Shown here: positions 4,321 through 11,732 of the stretch, piece after piece
Layout of the letters: each line of letters opens with the position of its first letter
Numbering within the stretch: position 1 is the stretch's first letter
Assembly: GCA_964568325.1 (NCBI GenBank)
Contig: CAZMQR010000001.1
Location: forward strand, 1-25,757
Length of the DNA: 25,757 nt
Direction: 5' to 3'
Source of the DNA: an uncultured Chloracidobacterium sp.
Lineage (GTDB): Bacteria > Acidobacteriota > Blastocatellia > Pyrinomonadales > Pyrinomonadaceae
Notes under the pieces: generated by a model
Database searches by the model: none
Told to the model about the DNA's origin: nothing
Seen by the model: only the letters and a program-made list of their open reading frames with translations
Translations under genes and position numbers: made by a program

Positions 4321-4683
4321 ATGAAACTCAGGATCAGCGGCAATTCACTGCGCCTGCGACTAACTCGCAGCGAGGTTGAGGAATTTGCGTCGACGGGCAC
4401 TTACGAAAGCTCGATCGCCCTCGTAGGAGGGCGGCTTGTCTATAAGCTGGAAAAAGACGCCGACTCGGCATCGCCGTCGGCTATGTTCTCTGACGGCATG
4501 ATCACGGTAAGTGTGCCTGCATACGCCGCAGACCAATGGACCGGAAGCGAGGACGTGGGCATTGAGGCGACGCACGCCGGACTAAAGATCGTGATCGAGA
4601 AGGATTTCGCCTGTCTCACCCCGCGGCCCGGCGAAGATACTCCCGATCATTATCCACATCCGGCGACCGGTGCCGTGTGCTGA
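4321..4683 (+). CDS. conserved hypothetical protein (DUF7009-like)
   Basis: N-terminus MKLRISGNSLRLRLTRSEV and C-terminal IEKDFACL...YPHP resemble that family (recalled, not searched). Confidence 0.75.
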   Translation: MKLRISGNSLRLRLTRSEVEEFASTGTYESSIALVGGRLVYKLEKDADSASPSAMFSDGMITVSVPAYAADQWTGSEDVGIEATHAGLKIVIEKDFACLTPRPGEDTPDHYPHPATGAVC

Positions 4684-4687
4684 ACGC

Positions 4688-5893
4688 TCAAATCGCCCCG
4701 ATGTCGGCGAGACACCGTTTGATGCGGTCAAATGAATGTTGAATATCGTTGTCGAGTCCGACCGAGAATCGAACCAGCCCGTCGGTCAGGCCCATCGCTT
4801 CACGTTCCTCTACCGGTATCTCCGACGAGGTACTATGGCCCGGACTGCTGAATAACGTCTTGAAATACCCCAAGCTGACCGCAAGATAACCTACCTTTTC
4901 CTGCTGCATCCGCGTCATTAGAGCGTTCGCTTTCTCGAGCGACCCCGCGTCAAGGGCCAGCATGCCGCCGTAGCCATAGCCCGGATTCATCATCTTCGAG
5001 AGCATCTCGTGCTGCGGATGATCGGGCAGGCCGGGGTAATAGACCTTCAGGCCCAGCTCACTAAACCGCTCGGCCAGGAACATGGCGTTCGCGCTGTGTT
5101 GCCGCATTCTTAGGTGCAGCGAATGAAGGTTTTTCAGAATACTCGCCGCCCGAGTGCTGTCCAGCACCGCTCCTAATAGCATCGATGCCCCGGCATTAAT
5201 GTCGGTCAGTTGATGGATGAATTCGCTGCTTGCGCACACGGCCCCTGCGACACAATCACTCGTTCCGTTAATAAACTTGGTCAGGCTGTGGACGACAACG
5301 TCGGCCCCTAGCCGGATCGGCGAGAGTATCATCGGCGTGAACGTGTTATCAACGACGAGCTTCAAACCGTGCTCGTGGCAGACCGATGACAACGTCGGAA
5401 TATCGGCTACCTCAAGCAGCGGGTTGCTGAGCGATTCGTAATAGATCACTCGGGTCCGATGGTTGATCAGGGACCGCACCTTGTCGAGATCGGCGAGATC
5501 GACAAAATGAACGGTTATGCCGAGCCTAGGGAGGAAATTCTTAAAGAATGCGTACGTCCCGCCGTAGATCGTCCGCGACGAGATGACCTCGTCACCCGTG
5601 CCGCAGAGTTGCAGGATCGCTGACGAGATCGCCGCCATGCCTGACGCCTTGGCCTGTGCTGCCTCGCTGTCCTCCATCCGCGCAAGTGCATCGGACAGAT
5701 ATTTATTGGTCGGATTCCAATGACGCGAATAGAGAAAACACCCTTCGATCTCATGATCGAATAGCTCCTCCATCTTGTCCGGACTCATGAACGTAAACGT
5801 CGAAGAATCCGTGATCGACGGATTCACATCGCCAAATTCGCCAAAGACCAGGAAATCCTGAATGGCATCGCTTGGGTCAAATCTCTCATTCAT
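4688..5893 (-). CDS. methionine gamma-lyase-like PLP enzyme (Cys/Met metabolism family, plant-MGL-like)
   Basis: VVHSLTKFINGTSD (PLP Lys), YSRHWNPT, IYGGT, DNTF, LAVSLGYFKTL...STSSE. Confidence 0.85.
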   Translation of the reverse strand: MNERFDPSDAIQDFLVFGEFGDVNPSITDSSTFTFMSPDKMEELFDHEIEGCFLYSRHWNPTNKYLSDALARMEDSEAAQAKASGMAAISSAILQLCGTGDEVISSRTIYGGTYAFFKNFLPRLGITVHFVDLADLDKVRSLINHRTRVIYYESLSNPLLEVADIPTLSSVCHEHGLKLVVDNTFTPMILSPIRLGADVVVHSLTKFINGTSDCVAGAVCASSEFIHQLTDINAGASMLLGAVLDSTRAASILKNLHSLHLRMRQHSANAMFLAERFSELGLKVYYPGLPDHPQHEMLSKMMNPGYGYGGMLALDAGSLEKANALMTRMQQEKVGYLAVSLGYFKTLFSSPGHSTSSEIPVEEREAMGLTDGLVRFSVGLDNDIQHSFDRIKRCLADIGAI

Positions 5894-6507
5894 ATCGATT
5901 TACGGCAATAACAGTAAACAAACTCCTGGGTCGTCCCGAATGGCGTCCGATGCGACTCGTCGAGGCTCGAGATCAACTCAAACTCATCGCCAAACTCGTC
6001 GTGCATCGTCGCGGGACTATATCTCACCACGTCGAGGCCGCTGCATTTCATCGGCCCGGCGAGGCCGAAGGACGCGATGATCACATGACCACCAGGCTTT
6101 ACCGCACGGTTGACGAGATCAACGTAACGCCGGCGATCCTCCGAAGCGGTAAGAAAGTGAAACACCGCCCTATCATGCCAAACATCATAATGATCTTTGG
6201 CAAGTTCTACGTTTGTAATATCGGCCTCGATCCAATTGACGAGGTTGTTCCGCTCGCCAAGCCGCGCCTTGCTGACCTCTATCGCCGTACTCGAGATATC
6301 GAGCACCGCGACATCGATGAACCCGGCATCCAACAGATCATCCACCAACGTCGAATTGCCGCCGCCCACGTCGATGATCGCCGCGTCCTTTTCGACGCCG
6401 GTCTGAACGATCATCCTGAGCGAATTATCCAGATGCTCGCGAAACCAACTGACCTGACCGTGCGGCTTCGTTGAATACACGTTCTCCCAGTGGGCCTTTT
6501 TATCCAT
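5890..6507 (-). CDS. class I SAM-dependent methyltransferase
   Basis: IIDVGGGNS motif I, LDISSTAI, YDVWHDRAVFHFL; GAGGAG SD; TGA overlaps the lyase ATG (ATGA). Confidence 0.9.
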   Translation of the reverse strand: MDKKAHWENVYSTKPHGQVSWFREHLDNSLRMIVQTGVEKDAAIIDVGGGNSTLVDDLLDAGFIDVAVLDISSTAIEVSKARLGERNNLVNWIEADITNVELAKDHYDVWHDRAVFHFLTASEDRRRYVDLVNRAVKPGGHVIIASFGLAGPMKCSGLDVVRYSPATMHDEFGDEFELISSLDESHRTPFGTTQEFVYCYCRKSI

Positions 6508-6661
6508 TAGAACTCTCCTCTTCGTCCGCGTTTCGGCGTCGTGACCCGACGTCGCATGCGCCGCGAAGTCAGGTCGGATAGCCGAGTTTAGGCAGGATCA
6601 CGAGCTGCAGCAGCAGCCAAAAAGCCACCAGGCCTATCACCCATAGAATGTCGTCGATCAC
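6500..6661 (-). CDS. small membrane protein, candidate selenoprotein (53 aa with TGA at codon 31 read as Sec; 30 aa otherwise)
   Basis: Hand translation: MIDDILWVIGLVAFWLLLQLVILPKLGYPT-(TGA 6571-6569)-LRGACDVGSRRRNADEEESSNG-TAA. The GTG start overlaps the upstream TGA; the TAA overlaps the downstream ATG by 8 nt. Confidence 0.65.
6520..6568 (-). promoter_or_regulatory. putative bacterial SECIS hairpin
   Basis: Directly 3' of the UGA. Upper stem CGUCG/CGACG closes a GGUCA loop beginning at nucleotide 23 after the UGA; CUUCG/CGAAG can pair at the base. Folded by eye only. Confidence 0.5.
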
Positions 6662-7083
6662 GGCCGCGCTCCCATAGGCAGGCCCGCCGCCTTCCACGCT
6701 TCAGTCCCGCCTTTTACAACTATCGCTTGTTTGAATCCGGCATCGATGAGTATCCTGGCCGCCTGCGACGAGCGATTATCGGTGCGGCAGATCAGATACA
6801 CAGGCTCATTCGCCTCCAGCATATCGAGGCTCGCAGCTAGTTTATCGAGTGGGATGTTGCGGGCCCGGTCCGCATGGCCGGCCGCGTATTCTTCCGGTGT
6901 TCTGACGTCAATGAACTGCGAATAGGCAGCCGAAGTCGCCGGCAAAGCGGCCTGAGGTGAGATCTCGGTTACGCCCGGAGCACTTACGACATCTGGTGCA
7001 TCAGTCGTCTTGGTCGGGGCCGACCGGCAGGCCCACGTGATCGCCAACAACGAGATCAGGACAACAATAGGTACTCTATTCAC
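6658..7083 (-). CDS. rhodanese-domain protein, probable lipoprotein
   Basis: IDVRTPEEYAAGH and active-site YLICRTDNRS; hydrophobic leader ending in TWAC (non-canonical lipobox); GTG start with GAGG SD. Confidence 0.88.
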   Translation of the reverse strand: MNRVPIVVLISLLAITWACRSAPTKTTDAPDVVSAPGVTEISPQAALPATSAAYSQFIDVRTPEEYAAGHADRARNIPLDKLAASLDMLEANEPVYLICRTDNRSSQAARILIDAGFKQAIVVKGGTEAWKAAGLPMGARP

Positions 7084-7096
7084 AAAAACCTCGGCT

Positions 7097-8584
7097 TCAA
7101 TTGACCTGAAAATTGCGCATCATGCCCATATCCTCATGCTCGAGATTGTGGCAGTGATATACAAACTTGCCCATAAAATCCTCGAACCTGAGGAGTAAAC
7201 GAACTCGCTCGCCCGGCATAAGCATGAAAGTGTCCTTCCATCCTGAGTCCACAAATCCATATCTTACGCCTTCGTAATTCGTTGCCCCCGATGGGTTCAT
7301 TTGGCGTTCGATGATCTGGAATTGTACGAGATGAATGTGCATCGGATGGGCCATCTGCACCATTCCCGCCTGATTTGGGATGTCCCATACCTCAAGCGTA
7401 TTCAGCGCCACATTCTCATTCGCCGCGACCCCGTTCATCTCAAACATTCCGCCGTTGAGCATGAACATGCCCATCTGAAATGTAATCGGGAATGCTCTCG
7501 GGTTCCCCACGTTGACGGCGTCCTCGAGGCGGTAGCGAGTTATTGCAGACAGCGTCGGCGGCAGCACGAAGTTGTCCACCACGCGGAGCCTGACACGAAA
7601 CGACATGATCGGAAAAGCCGCACCATTCGGCAGCGCGGCCCCACCATTGCCCATGTTTCCCATAGGCGAGAATGCCTGGCTCACCAGCCGACGGTTTCGT
7701 CGCAACGGAGCTCCTCTGAAATCCGCAATGACCTCATATCTTTCACCGGGCGACAGCATCAGATACGGCCGCTCGACCGGCGCCTCGAGTAATCCGCCGT
7801 CAGATGCGATGACCGTCAGCGGCGTTCCGTCGCTCCACGCAAGCTTGTAGAAACGCGAATTTGACCCGTTAAGAAAACGGAGCCGGTACGTTCGGCTTGC
7901 CACATCGACCGAACGCGCCATCTTTCCATTCACAAGCACGCGGTCGCCCAGATACCCAACCATCGTGATCGGCTGATAGGCAAACTGATTGTCGGGGGCA
8001 AATATGCGGTCCTGCAGCACGATCGGTATTTCGGCCTCGCCCGACGGCAGCCCGAGCGCCTGTTCTTCGTCATCAGTGACAATAAAGAGCCCGGCCAGGC
8101 CGCGACAGACCTGCGTCGCGGTCCGCATGTCTGGATGCGGGTGATACCAATAGGTGCCGGCGCGATTCATTACCGTGAACTCATAGACATAACTTGCCCC
8201 CGGCTCGACCGTAAAACGCGGATGAGCGTCCATTGCCTCAGGCACATGCAGCCCGTGCCAGTGCATCAGCGTCATCTCGGGCAGGTTGTTGGTAAAGTTG
8301 ACCCTGATGGTTTGGCCTCGATGCACGCGGATCGTTGGGCCAAGGAAAGAACCGGGAATCGGCTCAAAGTTCTGCGGCGTTCCCTGCACGACCTCGCCCT
8401 CATACCTCCAGACCGATGTCTGAGCCCCGGGCAGCAGGCCTACGGTGGATACAACCGCCCGAAGATTGATGATGACGTCGGGCACCGCAGCGGTCCGCGC
8501 CGCATGTGAGCCAAAGGCCAGCCGATCGCCTAACAGGGCCGCACCTGCGACACCGGTCAACTTAACAAAATCACGTCTCTTCAT
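7097..8584 (-). CDS. TAT-exported multicopper oxidase (CueO/bilirubin-oxidase-like)
   Basis: KRRDFVK twin-arginine leader; copper motifs HWHG, WYHPH, HPMHIHL and HCHNLEHEDMGMM. Confidence 0.93.
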   Translation of the reverse strand: MKRRDFVKLTGVAGAALLGDRLAFGSHAARTAAVPDVIINLRAVVSTVGLLPGAQTSVWRYEGEVVQGTPQNFEPIPGSFLGPTIRVHRGQTIRVNFTNNLPEMTLMHWHGLHVPEAMDAHPRFTVEPGASYVYEFTVMNRAGTYWYHPHPDMRTATQVCRGLAGLFIVTDDEEQALGLPSGEAEIPIVLQDRIFAPDNQFAYQPITMVGYLGDRVLVNGKMARSVDVASRTYRLRFLNGSNSRFYKLAWSDGTPLTVIASDGGLLEAPVERPYLMLSPGERYEVIADFRGAPLRRNRRLVSQAFSPMGNMGNGGAALPNGAAFPIMSFRVRLRVVDNFVLPPTLSAITRYRLEDAVNVGNPRAFPITFQMGMFMLNGGMFEMNGVAANENVALNTLEVWDIPNQAGMVQMAHPMHIHLVQFQIIERQMNPSGATNYEGVRYGFVDSGWKDTFMLMPGERVRLLLRFEDFMGKFVYHCHNLEHEDMGMMRNFQVN

Positions 8585-8596
8585 ACTAATGGTCAA

Positions 8597-9982
8597 CTAC
8601 TCGGCCGCTTTCGTGCTGGCACACGCGGCCGCGCTCACCTCGGTTTCGAGCCCGGCCTCTATCCACGCCGCCGTTCCGCCCGTGACGTTAAAGACCTTCT
8701 TAAAACCCGCATTTTCCAGAATACCGCAGCCGATCGACGATCGGTAGCCGCCCTGGCAGATCACGTAACTCGGTACTGCAGGATCAAGTTGATCGATCTC
8801 TGAGGCAAGTTTGTCGAGCGGGATATTTCGCGACCGATGTGCATGCCCCGCGTCGTGCTCCGCAGGCCGGCGAACATCGACAAGCTGCAGGTACTTCTCG
8901 GTCTTCGACAACTCGGCGACCTCGCCAACCGCTACCTGCTCGATCACTTTTCTCTCACCGGTGTAGTCGCCGATGAATTGATATCCGATGACTGTTTCAT
9001 GCCCTACGCGGGCCAGCCGCATTACAGCCTCATCGACCTGATCCGCACCGTTGGAAATGATCGCTATCGGCGTGCCGATCGGTATCAGAGTGCCCGACCA
9101 CGAGGCAAACTGCCCGCCAAGACCGATATTGATCGAATTCGGAACGTGCCCTGCTCCGTATTCAGTATTCGTGCGGATATCGATAACTACACCGTCAAAA
9201 GCAAACACTTCGTCCGTTGATAGGGCCGTAGGCCTTGCAAGCTCATCAAGCGCGGCCGCGCCCTCAAGGTTCTTTGCCGCACTTCGCGGAAAATACATCG
9301 GCACCTCAGGCTGGTCGGCCGCCACGAGCTTAACGAACTCATCCTTCGTCATTGGCTGCAATGCGTAATTGAATTTTCGCTGTTCGCCGAGCGTTGACCA
9401 GGTCTCTTTTGACAGAGACTTACCGCAAAGCGAACCGGCTCCGTGCGCGGGATAGACCTCAGTATCATCCGGCAGCGGCAGTATCTTTTCACGCAGGGAA
9501 TCGTAGAGCATCCCGCCCATCTGCTCGGCCGTAAACCCTTTAGACCCAATAAGGTCCGGGCGGCCGACATCTCCGATGAAAAGCGTATCGCCCGTGAATA
9601 TCCTGAGCGGCGAGCCGTCAGATTCCGCAATGATCGTGATGCCCTCAGGCGTGTGTCCGGGCGTTTCGAGAAATCTGAGCTTCACACGACCGACCGACAA
9701 CTCGTCGCCGTCGGTAACCTTGAGCGTGGGGAACTTTGTATTTGCACGCTGCCCGTAAACGATCTGTGCTCCGGTCTTAGCGGCTAGCTCAATGTGTCCG
9801 CTGACAAAGTCCGCGTGCGAGTGCGTTTCGATGACGTACTTGATCTTCTGCCCGTTGGCCTCAGCCTCGTCCAGATATTGCTGCACGTCACGCTGCGGAT
9901 CGATGATCGCCGCCTCGCCCTCAGAGCCGAGGTAATATGACGCATGAGACAAACAGCCTAAATAGAATTGCTTGAACTGCAT
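8597..9982 (-). CDS. MBL-fold persulfide dioxygenase-rhodanese fusion (CstB-like)
   Basis: ETHSHADF, TPGHTPE, FTGDTLFIGDVGRPDL, HGAGSLCG; a Cys-less rhodanese domain followed by a catalytic one (YVICQGGYRS); AAGGAG SD before ATG 9982. Confidence 0.88.
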   Translation of the reverse strand: MQFKQFYLGCLSHASYYLGSEGEAAIIDPQRDVQQYLDEAEANGQKIKYVIETHSHADFVSGHIELAAKTGAQIVYGQRANTKFPTLKVTDGDELSVGRVKLRFLETPGHTPEGITIIAESDGSPLRIFTGDTLFIGDVGRPDLIGSKGFTAEQMGGMLYDSLREKILPLPDDTEVYPAHGAGSLCGKSLSKETWSTLGEQRKFNYALQPMTKDEFVKLVAADQPEVPMYFPRSAAKNLEGAAALDELARPTALSTDEVFAFDGVVIDIRTNTEYGAGHVPNSINIGLGGQFASWSGTLIPIGTPIAIISNGADQVDEAVMRLARVGHETVIGYQFIGDYTGERKVIEQVAVGEVAELSKTEKYLQLVDVRRPAEHDAGHAHRSRNIPLDKLASEIDQLDPAVPSYVICQGGYRSSIGCGILENAGFKKVFNVTGGTAAWIEAGLETEVSAAACASTKAAE

Positions 9983-10034
9983 TTCTCCTTTCTCCGTATT
10001 TGTGAACATTTTATCAGTATCGAGTGAGCGGTGC

Positions 10035-10613
10035 TTATTTCTTCACTGCACGGTCACGCCGCCCCGCCCTCGTTGGCGGCAAGTCACAAGCTGCCGAGGC
10101 CTTGTTCCAAGGCATTCGTGCCAGCACCATCGCCATTCCGCACGTATCCGTAACGGCAGCGAACACAAGGCCCGCGCCGACAAAACCGCTGAGAATGAAG
10201 AAATACGGCGTAACTGCAAACCCCACGACAATGCCGATCACGACGAGCAGGCCCGCCGCGAAGCGCACTTGACGCTCGAGCGACCAGACCTTCGATTCGC
10301 CTACGACAATAGGCAGGGCGGCGCCCGCCCACGCGGCCATTCCTCCCTTGATCACATGGATGTCGGTGAAACCCTTGGCCGACAGTTTTTCAGCAGCCTG
10401 TCGTGCGCGGTTTCCCGAGCGGCACATCAGATATACCGGTTTTGAATGATCGATATCGGCCGCGTGTTTCTCAAAATTGGACAACGGCATCAACTGCGCG
10501 TCTGCTATACGCTCGCTGTTGAACTCGGAATATTCCCGCACGTCGATCACCTGACACTCACCGCCAGTTTCGAGCATCTCATTGATCTCGTGCACAGTTG
10601 CTAGTTTGATCAT
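10035..10613 (-). CDS. rhodanese plus DUF2892 membrane protein (YgaP-like)
   Basis: IDVREYSEF and YLMCRSGNRA; C-terminal WSLERQVR...TDTCGM...MPWN two-helix membrane domain. Confidence 0.9.
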   Translation of the reverse strand: MIKLATVHEINEMLETGGECQVIDVREYSEFNSERIADAQLMPLSNFEKHAADIDHSKPVYLMCRSGNRARQAAEKLSAKGFTDIHVIKGGMAAWAGAALPIVVGESKVWSLERQVRFAAGLLVVIGIVVGFAVTPYFFILSGFVGAGLVFAAVTDTCGMAMVLARMPWNKASAACDLPPTRAGRRDRAVKK

Positions 10614-10641
10614 CGCTCTTGATTTCTCTCCTATTGGTCTA

Positions 10642-10684
10642 ATATACTCAACTCGGATATGAGTATATAACTATATCGTTATAT
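10642..10684. promoter_or_regulatory. two overlapping inverted repeats, putative ArsR-family operators
   Basis: ATATACTCA-N9-TGAGTATAT (10642-10668) and the near-perfect 20-bp palindrome ATATAACTATATCGTTATAT (10665-10684). Confidence 0.65.
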
Positions 10685-10690
10685 TATCAA
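10662..10690 (-). promoter_or_regulatory. sigma70-type promoter of the leftward operon
   Basis: Minus strand TTGATA (10690-10685), 17-nt spacer, TATACT (10667-10662). Confidence 0.75.
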
Positions 10691-10697
10691 GCGTGTA

Positions 10698-11021
10698 ATG
10701 AAAAAGACTATGTCACCTGAGGTAGTCGGCTTAGTCGCCCAGCGGTTCAAAGTGCTGTCAGAACCGCTCAGGTTGCAGATACTGCAGCGTCTGGAAAGAG
10801 GTGAATCGAGCGTCTCGGACATCACCCACGCAGTGGCCTCGACCCAACCTAACGTGAGCAAGCATCTGCGGATCCTGCAAGACGGCGGCCTTGTCGCTCG
10901 CCGTCAGGATGGCAATACGGTTTACTATCGTATCGCCGATGACTCGGTCTTTGAACTCTGTCAGGTTGTCTGCGGGAGTTTGCAAGAGAAGTTTGTTCGG
11001 CAACGATCGATTTTTGCATGA
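10698..11021 (+). CDS. ArsR/SmtB-family transcriptional regulator
   Basis: LSEPLRLQIL, STQPNVSKHLRILQDGGLV and GNTVYYRI winged HTH; the only Cys are C88 and C92. Confidence 0.93.
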   Translation: MKKTMSPEVVGLVAQRFKVLSEPLRLQILQRLERGESSVSDITHAVASTQPNVSKHLRILQDGGLVARRQDGNTVYYRIADDSVFELCQVVCGSLQEKFVRQRSIFA

Positions 11022-11732
11022 TCAAGCCGTAGGCCGAAGGTACCTGACGACAAATCTCGGCGGCTCATCCTCATTCTCCGGCGGCATTTCGACAAAGCCG
11101 GTCTCAACAAGGCCGTTTTCACTAAACCGAGAAAGGTCGCGCCGCGAGCACGGCCACGGCACGGTATTAGGTTCCTCGTCGTCACCTCTCCCGCGCGTGA
11201 CGACGACGAGCTCGCCACCCTCGGCGACAAATGCGGCGATCGAATCGATCACCCGCGGACGCATCTCAAGCGGCAGCGGCTGTATCGTGTAGATCTCCAA
11301 TACAAAGTCAAAAGCTCCGAGCCAGCCAGGAGCGGGCTGAAACAGGTCAGCGGCCTCGAATTGAATGTCCGTATCGCCGTAGAGCTTCTTTGCCCACTCG
11401 ATCGCGGTCGGCGAGAGGTCAAACGCCGTTACCTTAAATCCGAGGTCGTGCAGATACTTAGCATCGTCGCCAAGCCCGCAGCCCACCACGAGCGCGGTTC
11501 GCCCATCGCCTTTCAGCCTGTTTGCTTCCGCCCACTTGTGAAAGTAACTGTTCGGCTCAAGGTCGGCCCACGGTATGACCTCGTTGTCGCCCGCGGCCTC
11601 CCTGTATAGCGCGTCGAACCAGCCCATGACATCGCCCCGCGCCGCAAATTCCTCCTGCAGTTCGCGGACACGCTCGCGTCGTCGTTCAAGGTCAGCATTC
11701 ATATCAGGTGATGAGGGCATCGGCAGCTCCAC
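11022..11732 (-). CDS. class I SAM methyltransferase (thiopurine/thiol MTase-like)
   Basis: ALVVGCGLGDDA, VTAFDLSPTAI, IPWAD; the true start may be ATG 11720 (GGAG SD). Confidence 0.85.
   Translation of the reverse strand: MELPMPSSPDMNADLERRRERVRELQEEFAARGDVMGWFDALYREAAGDNEVIPWADLEPNSYFHKWAEANRLKGDGRTALVVGCGLGDDAKYLHDLGFKVTAFDLSPTAIEWAKKLYGDTDIQFEAADLFQPAPGWLGAFDFVLEIYTIQPLPLEMRPRVIDSIAAFVAEGGELVVVTRGRGDDEEPNTVPWPCSRRDLSRFSENGLVETGFVEMPPENEDEPPRFVVRYLRPTA

Follow-up and report, generated by a model that had tools for sequence, protein, structure and literature searches.

Reactive sulfur (H2S and persulfides) is both a major stress and a signal for bacteria. To our knowledge, the known operons for its detoxification (cst, BigR-Blh, SqrR, and YgaVP) contain neither a selenoprotein nor a methylation branch. 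Rhodaneses and fusions of persulfide dioxygenase (PDO) with rhodanese occur in the operons that combine sulfide:quinone reductase (SQR) with PDO (sqr-pdo; PMC9163753), and YgaV-YgaP of Escherichia coli is a sulfide-responsive pair of an ArsR-type regulator and a rhodanese (PMC9774250). The Tso operon encodes the ArsR-type regulator TsoR, the rhodanese/DsbD selenoprotein TsoB, and TsoA, a selenoprotein with a LULAxC motif (PMC13188914). Among the S-methyltransferases of H2S and methanethiol (MeSH), both MddH and MddM1/M2 belong to the small class I enzymes, and the verified MddM1 enzymes include Acidobacteriota proteins of 216–220 amino acids (aa); mddH is located among multicopper oxidase and metal-resistance genes, and MegL supplies MeSH (PMC11445057, PMC12904073). 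Here, we describe an operon divergent from arsR in an uncultured Chloracidobacterium sp., in which genes of these different kinds are found side by side. The DNA analyzed (hereafter, the window) is 25,757 nt long and represents a whole contig (CAZMQR010000001.1) of a 2.7-Mb metagenome-assembled genome (MAG; G000) that is 80.5% complete.

The operon comprises a known sulfur core together with a newly recognized selenopeptide that occurs phylum-wide, methylation and lyase genes that recur with this core, and a multicopper oxidase gene that joins it only in the closest relatives. On balance, we favor the reading that the locus is a lineage-specific, enlarged, ArsR-controlled operon for the detoxification of sulfide and persulfide (sulfane sulfur) in a wastewater Acidobacterium. 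Near-identical sequences were found in public sequencing runs from sludge and wastewater samples, and the names carried by close protein homologs indicate Blastocatellia/Pyrinomonadaceae. In the following, loci are labeled L, genomes G, and public sequencing runs X; L108 is a conspecific contig, and L107 and L213 represent two other species.

The persulfide core and its probable selenopeptide

A preliminary description of the locus had proposed a core of sulfide/persulfide detoxification genes, with rhodaneses predicted in the membrane, the cytoplasm, and the envelope. All parts of this set were found, namely ArsR, a YgaP-type rhodanese, a PDO-rhodanese, and an exported rhodanese, and the three locations are supported, that in the envelope by a lipobox Cys kept in orthologs. 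The YgaP-like protein consists of a cytoplasmic rhodanese domain with the loop CRSGNR and a C-terminal transmembrane (TM) domain, and its orthologs, which are 74–87% identical, occupy the same position. In the PDO, as in CstB-type enzymes, the catalytic Cys is present in the C-terminal rhodanese (CQGGYR) and missing from the middle one. Full-length PDB matches of the PDO were 3TP9 (260 bits) and 3R2U (214 bits), which we take to be Staphylococcus aureus CstB, followed by BpPRF and ETHE1. The exported rhodanese has the loop CRTDNR and a signal peptide ending in the lipobox Cys, which is kept in approximately 15 orthologs; in L107, L021, and L138, it carries a fused ferritin-like domain (DUF2202).

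Neither TauE nor SQR was detected in the window among the translated open reading frames (ORFs) or by Pfam. The preliminary description had correctly recorded this absence, but TauE was lost recently and lineage-specifically rather than left out by design, because sister loci retain it: it lies between ygaP and the PDO gene in L107, G007, L021, and many other loci. An SQR-like gene occurs in the sister loci L155 and L156, and none was found in G000, an 80%-complete MAG, whose single TauE paralog elsewhere in the genome is only 25% identical. The TauE of L107 (5557–5994) was called at 145 aa versus approximately 255–268 aa elsewhere, possibly a decaying copy intermediate towards loss.

The small ORF downstream of the exported rhodanese gene very probably encodes a true selenoprotein. 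The predicted selenopeptide comprises an N-terminal TM helix, the segment LPKLGYPT-U31-LRGAC with the motif T-U-x4-C, and a charged tail; by the positive-inside rule, its selenocysteine (Sec) would lie at the cytoplasmic face of the membrane. TGA occupied the same codon first in five orthologs and then in 47, with the consensus M-x-x, TM helix, LP[KR]xGxxT-U-[ML]xxxC-x-[VA]-[GE]-[SF]-R, and charged tail. Downstream of the TGA, codons changed synonymously (Arg cgc/aga, Gly ggc/gga/ggt, Ala gca/gcg/gcc, and Cys tgc/tgt). A hairpin resembling a selenocysteine insertion sequence (SECIS), with seven pairs and a GGUC-type loop, begins 15–18 nt downstream of the UGA. Compensatory changes were seen in six of the seven pairs, and this covariation was reached in none of 500 shuffles and was lower in slid controls. 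The MAG also encodes the Sec machinery: selA (517.6 bits) and selB (360.5 bits) each scored above the cut-off, and a tRNA-SeC(tca) is present. The conserved TGA, the coding signature downstream, the covarying hairpin, and selA, selB, and tRNA-Sec together back the earlier suggestion of a Sec-candidate peptide. The alternative that translation stops at the TGA and restarts at an ATG, giving two ORFs, was ruled out because CTN, which is no start codon, directly follows the TGA in 14 of the 47 orthologs.

The peptide resembled no family in the collections searched. NCBIfam gave only a chance match to ATP-synthase b for the read-through peptide at up to E = 10, and Rfam returned no matching family around the gene, only a chance snoRNA match (E = 3.8). 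The TsoA model (144 positions) did not match the selenopeptide in the five genomes searched, and a 2026 review of prokaryotic selenoproteins does not mention the U-x4-C motif in its text.

A profile of the selenopeptide matched 139 of 401 genomes of the class, a tally that includes two unpublished genomes (G154 and G223) on which nothing else here depends, and 70 of 301 genomes of the phylum (43 of 185 genera); the matched selenopeptides almost always had exactly one in-frame TGA. The gene follows PDO or rhodanese genes in 38 of 48 loci, with TauE in 16, ArsR in 15, and DUF302 in 15, and is a core member of the PDO/rhodanese operon family; the ArsR/YgaP/TauE/PDO/rhodanese/selenopeptide core recurs in most of these loci. 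No homolog with Cys in place of Sec was found among these 48 loci.

Several variations accompany the family. In one copy (L228:4102-4245; G370), the Sec codon is replaced by GGN (Gly) and the frame runs on through a later TGA, representing a decayed copy or a non-Sec form. The DUF302 gene is the immediate neighbor of the selenopeptide gene (position +1 or −1) in its 15 loci, for example, in the region L148:9280-9700 and at L139:9234-9641, L021:10887-11300, and L235:6567-7037; one also precedes the oxidase gene in G007. In distant families of the class (L227, L230, L231, L233–L235, L239, and L240), the selenopeptide, often with DUF302 and ArsR, is found by an efflux set of the resistance-nodulation-division (RND) type (OEP-HlyD-AcrB), which adjoins it in place of, or besides, the PDO gene.

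Organization and regulation of the locus

Gene anatomy was determined from the ORF listing and translations, and domains were assigned with Pfam and NCBIfam (Table 1). Seven co-oriented genes run from position 10613 down to 4688 on the minus strand, with arsR divergent, and the junctions in gene order are 52, 12, 13, −4 (GTGA), −8, and −4 (ATGA) nt, lengths that depend on the start codons, which were chosen per ortholog alignments and public gene calls. An alternative ATG of the PDO gene is open at 10009, and the orthologs align from Met10, with the public call giving 461 aa; for the oxidase gene, a TTG at 8596 is also open, and the public call gives 495 aa. The junction between the selenopeptide and methyltransferase genes is −8 nt with read-through of the TGA and +61 nt if the TGA terminates. 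With read-through, the seven one-strand genes and all gaps and overlaps of the preliminary description (52, 12, and 13 nt; 4, 8, and 4 nt) were reproduced exactly, and its domain assignments agree with Pfam and NCBIfam throughout, DUF2892 being the former name of YgaP-like_TM. The gene order is identical in L108 and the same in L107 with TauE added, and PDO-oxidase-rhodanese-peptide recurs in L213, so the arrangement is beyond chance.

Table 1. Features of the arsR-divergent operon and its surroundings in the window
Feature	Position	Strand	Basis
ArsR/SmtB-family repressor, 107 aa	10698-11021	+	Pfam HTH_5/HTH_20; NCBIfam HTH_metalloreg, 90.7 bits
Predicted operon promoter (−35 TTGATA 10690-10685; −10 TATACT 10667-10662)	10662-10690	-	Consensus scan, 10/12 matches
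Candidate operator ATATAAC-N6-GTTATAT	10665-10684		Read from the sequence
YgaP-like membrane rhodanese, 192 aa	10035-10613	-	Pfam Rhodanese, 63 bits; YgaP-like_TM, 35 bits
CstB-like PDO with two rhodanese domains (PDO-Rhd-Rhd), 461 aa	8597-9982	-	Pfam Lactamase_B and two Rhodanese stretches
Multicopper oxidase of twin-arginine translocation (Tat) type, 495 aa	7097-8584	-	Pfam Cu-oxidase_3/Cu-oxidase/Cu-oxidase_2
Exported lipoprotein rhodanese, single-domain, 141 aa	6658-7083	-	Pfam Rhodanese, 64.8 bits
Membrane selenoprotein candidate, 53 aa (GTG start 6661; TGA 6571-6569; TAA 6502-6500)	6500-6661	-	Translation with TGA = U
SECIS-like hairpin, apical loop GGUCA	6535-6553	-	Consensus fold of 42 orthologs
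Class I S-adenosylmethionine (SAM)-dependent methyltransferase, 205 aa	5890-6507	-	Pfam Methyltransf_11/25/12
Pyridoxal phosphate (PLP)-dependent lyase resembling methionine gamma-lyase (MGL), 401 aa	4688-5893	-	Pfam Cys_Met_Meta_PP, 334 bits
TPMT/TehB-like methyltransferase, 236 aa (associated eighth gene)	11022-11732	-	Pfam TPMT, 37.5 bits; TehB, 25.5 bits

The divergent gap between arsR and ygaP measures 84 nt and holds a sigma-70-like promoter (TTGATA-17-TATACT). The co-oriented genes behind this one repressor-controlled promoter are in line with the single unit proposed in the preliminary description. The palindrome ATATAAC-N6-GTTATAT occupies the spacer of this promoter and extends 3 nt into the −10 box. 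It is kept upstream of the clusters in L107, L021, and L138, with variants in L139 and L154–L157. Homologous clusters in eight other species, some with a divergent and some with a co-directional arsR, likewise have this palindrome or a variant with a longer spacer in front of them, and it is therefore very probably the operator of the ArsR repressor.

The only Cys residues of ArsR are C88 and C92, located in the last helix (F-x-LC-x-x-VC). This CxxxC pair was invariant in nine ArsR orthologs adjoining YgaP-PDO clusters, none of which contained a Cys in helix 2. The sensing Cys pair of BigR, SqrR, and YgaV is split between helix 2 and helix 5, and the score of ArsR against the NCBIfam BigR equivalog (52.6 bits) was below the cut-off of 155. 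Given the absence of the BigR/SqrR Cys positions and the score below cut-off, the thiol-based sensing of sulfane sulfur that we suggest for ArsR, with a Cys geometry unlike that of BigR/SqrR, rests on analogy. The N-terminus of ArsR also varies between strains: the protein of L108 is 109 aa long versus 107 aa in the window, and contigs of three runs (X2, X6, and X1) contain a 6-nt insertion (ATTGAA) behind window position 10709, near the arsR start.

Evidence regarding transcription came from contigs of three metatranscriptome libraries of a single sludge study. These contigs bridged the PDO/oxidase (7885–9340 and 8280–8782), oxidase/rhodanese (6736–7147), and peptide/methyltransferase (6434–6659) junctions. 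Contigs on the operon side ended at 10637–10661 and those on the arsR side began at 10666–10686, and a DNA-like run spanned the gap. The contig ends give a weak hint of divergent transcription from the predicted promoters, and the bridging contigs fit read-through over the junctions. Regarding the co-transcription on which the preliminary description had set its check, contigs do bridge several of the junctions, but they do not prove a single transcript. The bins of ygaP were higher than downstream bins in the three libraries, although contig depth does not rank genes. A contig joint in X5 that skips 6789–9644 had only 21 nt on one side and loose ends and was taken as chimeric or foreign. Terminator-like and internal promoter-like scan signals were located inside coding regions, little above the shuffle expectation, and were not used.

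Two further genes flank the unit. The TPMT/TehB-like gene abuts the arsR stop tail-to-tail. At the other end, a convergent DUF7009 gene (4321–4683, +) ends 4 nt from the lyase stop; its position is kept in L107, L108, and L213, even without the methyltransferase and lyase genes in the case of L213, and RNA-library contigs cross this convergent junction (4384–4841).

Methylation, lyase, and multicopper oxidase genes

The 205-aa methyltransferase belongs to a very large, well-conserved family with weak matches to UbiE and UbiG and was found in 28 of 201 genomes of the class. A PDB search returned only uncharacterized or unrelated small methyltransferases (6mro, 9w6x YtkW, and 8gdu). Its gene is in or beside a PDO/rhodanese/selenopeptide cluster at 10 of the 22 loci examined, and the arrangements vary (PDO-unk464-methyltransferase-rhodanese-selenopeptide, PDO-selenopeptide-DUF302-methyltransferase, PDO-TauE-selenopeptide-methyltransferase-SQR-like, and PDO-methyltransferase-Aminotran_5). 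It adjoins the PDO gene in L138, L139, L152, and L154–L157, some of which also have TauE, an SQR-like gene, or DUF302. We found no paper describing a methyltransferase within a PDO/rhodanese operon. In the window, its ATG overlaps the read-through end of the selenopeptide gene by 8 nt, and translation of the methyltransferase could depend on Sec decoding because of this overlap. The start of the lyase gene, in turn, overlaps the methyltransferase stop.

The lyase contains the PLP-binding Lys, the active-site Tyr and Arg, and the carboxylate-binding Arg (SLTKF, LYSRHWNPT, IYGG, and LVRFSVGL aligned to Citrobacter freundii MGL). C. freundii MGL was also the best PDB match, and Gly replaces Cys115/116 of MGL (IYGG versus IYGC in the C. 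freundii wild type; 2rfv). Its score against the NCBIfam MGL model (TIGR01328) was 295 bits at a cut-off of 549.7, and it was below every NCBIfam equivalog cut-off. Orthologs that are 78–93% identical occur in approximately 10 of the 48 selenopeptide loci. Of 40 further selenopeptide loci searched by tblastn, 12 contain the TPMT-like gene, which often immediately precedes the PDO gene; in L213, L207, L210, L215, and L148, the ortholog shares the strand of the PDO or rhodanese gene and lies immediately upstream of it. The methyltransferase and lyase genes are therefore syntenic with the sulfur core in several species, in agreement with the earlier claim that they belong with it. Recurrent synteny and analogy suggest that the methyltransferase may S-methylate HS- or MeSH and that the lyase may feed or relieve this branch.

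The oxidase displays the copper motifs HWH, HPH, HPMHIH, and HCHNLEHEDMGM in three cupredoxin domains, together with Met-rich stretches. Its Tat motif is RRDFVK (Pfam TAT_signal, 18.6 bits, below the cut-off of 22.7). The best PDB match was bilirubin oxidase (8z59), and McoP and CueO also matched; the closest NCBIfam model was CueO (307 bits versus a cut-off of 525). No second gene of this kind was found in the MAG, and we found no paper on a multicopper oxidase within a PDO/rhodanese operon. Its gene lies between the PDO and rhodanese genes in only 3 of the 48 operon-family loci, namely those of the window species, L107, and L213. In G007, the ortholog (66% identical) is outside the operon on the far side of arsR, where an integrase fragment and a DUF302 gene precede it. 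To survey the wider family, 80 loci of homologs with 40–54% identity from other phyla were collected, of which 75 were usable. Copper-resistance genes dominated their neighborhoods, which included SHOCT (19), copper P-type ATPases (17), Metal_resist (8 + 4), a second oxidase (10), and response regulators (10), and PDO was nearby in only 2 of the 80. Given its presence in the operon of only three close species and the location of its wider family in copper-resistance loci, recruitment of a cuprous oxidase to sulfide stress is a more likely explanation for this enzyme than the oxidation of sulfide.

Two observations concern the surroundings of the oxidase homologs. In L052, a 47%-identical homolog of the window methyltransferase lies just downstream of an oxidase homolog. 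In addition, a different Methyltransf_11/UbiE-like family (216 aa; not BLAST-alignable to that of the window) is found by oxidase homologs at 5 of the 75 loci, for example, L031:5520-6170, which echoes the published association of mddH with oxidase genes.

The preliminary description had instead regarded the oxidase as an integral component acting on periplasmic sulfide or thiols, a view that the locus counts do not bear out. In its full form, the oxidase would oxidize periplasmic sulfide, polysulfide, or thiols such as methanethiol, replacing SQR in a trans-envelope pathway. Its place between the PDO and exported rhodanese genes with gaps of 12–13 nt in three species, the RNA-library contigs bridging both flanking junctions, the lack of an SQR-like gene in the 80%-complete MAG, and the use of the same slot in the sister operon L138 by another exported protein (unk464) are in its favor. 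We nevertheless consider this role unlikely, as the gene is in the operon at so few loci and stands outside it by an integrase fragment in G007, the homologs elsewhere occur in copper-resistance contexts almost free of PDO, and the enzyme has the motifs and Met-rich segments typical of CueO-like cuprous oxidases; a full-text literature search found no paper on sulfide oxidation by such an enzyme.

The protein unk464 (L138:8327-9721, +) is an exported protein of 464 aa with a signal peptide ending in AIQAC and no Pfam family. It occurs in 6 of the 48 operon-family loci, with homologs in L207, L209, L210, L215, and L206, and its slot in L138 is between the PDO and methyltransferase genes. Its features give a weak indication (0.81) of a beta-propeller of the kelch or galactose-oxidase-like kind.

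It is also quite unlikely that the locus is a mosaic without joint function, in which the sulfur core, an unrelated copper oxidase, and a methionine-salvage or catabolism pair with their own internal promoters were brought together by neutral rearrangement. The modules do reassort freely between species, the oxidase is near an integrase fragment in G007, 12 of the 22 methyltransferase loci are away from sulfur genes, and the gap before the methyltransferase would be 61 nt if the UGA terminated. Against this stand the tight junctions (12, 13, −4, −8, and −4 nt), the re-association of the methyltransferase, lyase, and TPMT-like genes with the PDO/rhodanese/selenopeptide core in many arrangements, and the RNA-library contigs that bridge junctions.

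A unit centered on selenium, with selenide or selenite handled via rhodanese-bound Se, two methyltransferases, and a selenomethionine/selenocysteine lyase, and with the selenopeptide as a Se-dependent component or sensor, would suit the selenoprotein whose read-through end overlaps the methyltransferase start, the matches of the neighboring methyltransferase to TPMT and TehB, families known from selenium/tellurium methylation, and the fact that MGL-type enzymes also cleave seleno-amino acids, but it is quite unlikely: the conserved partners of the selenopeptide (PDO, TauE, rhodaneses, and sometimes an SQR-like gene) form a sulfur-oxidation set, the methyltransferase, TPMT-like, and lyase genes are accessory (in 4–12 of 40 further loci), and carrying a selenoprotein says nothing on selenium as a substrate.

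We return to the reading of the locus as an enlarged operon for sulfide and persulfide detoxification. Both the sulfur detoxification unit and its layout across the envelope are borne out, and the methylation and lyase genes are truly associated with it; the weakest element is the suggested role of the multicopper oxidase as a sulfide or thiol oxidase. Several findings weigh against this reading. ArsR is below the BigR cut-off and lacks the Cys positions of BigR/SqrR; 12 of the 22 loci of the methyltransferase family are away from sulfur genes; and the lyase has scores below cut-off and lacks the MGL Cys. As for the oxidase, even its closest model (CueO) is below cut-off, no copper pump, chaperone, or sensor was found near it in the window region examined, and it sits under an ArsR-type rather than a copper-sensing promoter. 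Moreover, the MAG is only 80% complete, the RNA-library contigs may contain DNA, and a contig covering two genes is not proof of a single transcript.

We propose the following mechanism. ArsR would sit on ATATAAC-N6-GTTATAT between the −35 and −10 boxes and be released when sulfane sulfur modifies its C-terminal CxxxC. The YgaP-like rhodanese and the CstB-like enzyme would take cytoplasmic persulfide sulfur to sulfite or thiosulfate, whose export may be the task of TauE in sister species, lost here, and the lipoprotein rhodanese would handle sulfane sulfur in the envelope. At the membrane face, the selenopeptide would most likely serve in selenol/thiol redox chemistry or as a sulfur relay. S-methylation of HS- or methanethiol to volatile products would fall to the 205-aa methyltransferase, probably together with the TPMT-like enzyme, and the MGL-like lyase may cleave methionine, homocysteine, or cysteine-type compounds that accumulate in or feed the methylation branch. 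The oxidase would be a late add-on from a copper-resistance family, most likely re-oxidizing Cu(I) made by periplasmic sulfide, polysulfide, and thiols. Because Cu(II) is reduced, and Cu(I) bound, by sulfide and thiols, co-induction of sulfide and copper defenses would be physiologically sensible, and copper protection of the envelope would be induced together with sulfide stress.

A more far-reaching combination can be put forward tentatively. The T-U-x4-C peptide (50–60 aa) might constitute a new selenoprotein family acting as an obligatory selenol-based relay or reductase of sulfane sulfur in the YgaP/PDO/rhodanese system throughout Acidobacteriota. Here, it might be part of a disposal system with three branches: oxidation in the cytoplasm; formation of volatile sulfides through S-methylation, served by the two methyltransferases and the lyase; and a copper oxidase in the envelope that acts on Cu(I)-sulfide or thiol species. 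Methyltransferase translation would be coupled to Sec read-through.

Comparison with known systems

A small membrane selenoprotein as a conserved member of persulfide-oxidation clusters, matching a quarter to a third of the sampled Acidobacteriota genomes, would, if true, enlarge the prokaryotic selenoproteome by one family and implicate selenium in sulfide tolerance. The recurrent joining of oxidative sulfide detoxification with thiol-methyltransferase and MGL-type genes could connect persulfide stress with methanethiol and dimethyl sulfide formation in soils and wastewater. With its copper oxidase under a sulfur-type repressor, the locus provides a specific example in which the cross-toxicity of copper and sulfide in the cell envelope can be studied.

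As in the Tso operon, an ArsR-type regulator, rhodanese chemistry, and a short U...C selenoprotein occur together in the window, and ArsR matched TsoR weakly (48.9 bits). In contrast to Tso, the rhodaneses of the window use Cys, and the selenopeptide has its T-U-x4-C motif directly after the TM helix and does not match TsoA. MegL with the Mdd enzymes (MddA, MddH, and MddM1/M2) leads from methionine via methanethiol to dimethyl sulfide and methylates H2S. The proposed methylation branch resembles this system in having a small soluble class I methyltransferase, here translationally coupled to an MGL-type lyase; the methyltransferase of the window is embedded in a persulfide-oxidation operon, a setting not described for the Mdd genes (PMC11445057, PMC12904073). 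The oxidase shares three cupredoxin domains, four copper motifs, a Tat signal, and Met-rich segments with CueO-type enzymes, and its homologs are located in copper-resistance loci, whereas its score is below cut-off, its promoter is of the sulfur-type ArsR kind, and no copper sensor, pump, or chaperone is nearby.

The closest parallels concern the core. In BigR-Blh of Xylella and Agrobacterium, SqrR, and YgaV-YgaP, as in the window, an ArsR-family repressor gene, either divergent or placed in front, accompanies those of a YgaP-type membrane rhodanese and a PDO-rhodanese, with a palindromic operator in the promoter. The ArsR of the window differs from BigR-type repressors in lacking the helix-2 Cys, in having CxxxC in the last helix, and in its BigR score below cut-off, and the domain order of Blh is opposite to that of the PDO-rhodanese (NCBIfam Blh, 59.6 bits versus a cut-off of 625). 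The cst operon of S. aureus (CstR, TauE, CstA, CstB, and SQR) likewise combines a PDO-Rhd-Rhd enzyme with extra rhodaneses and an adjoining thiol-based repressor, and TauE is found in the sister loci of the window. The repressor of cst is of the CsoR type rather than the ArsR type found here. Compared with cst, the operon in the window lacks SQR and TauE and has in addition the selenopeptide, the multicopper oxidase, the methyltransferases, and the MGL-like lyase.

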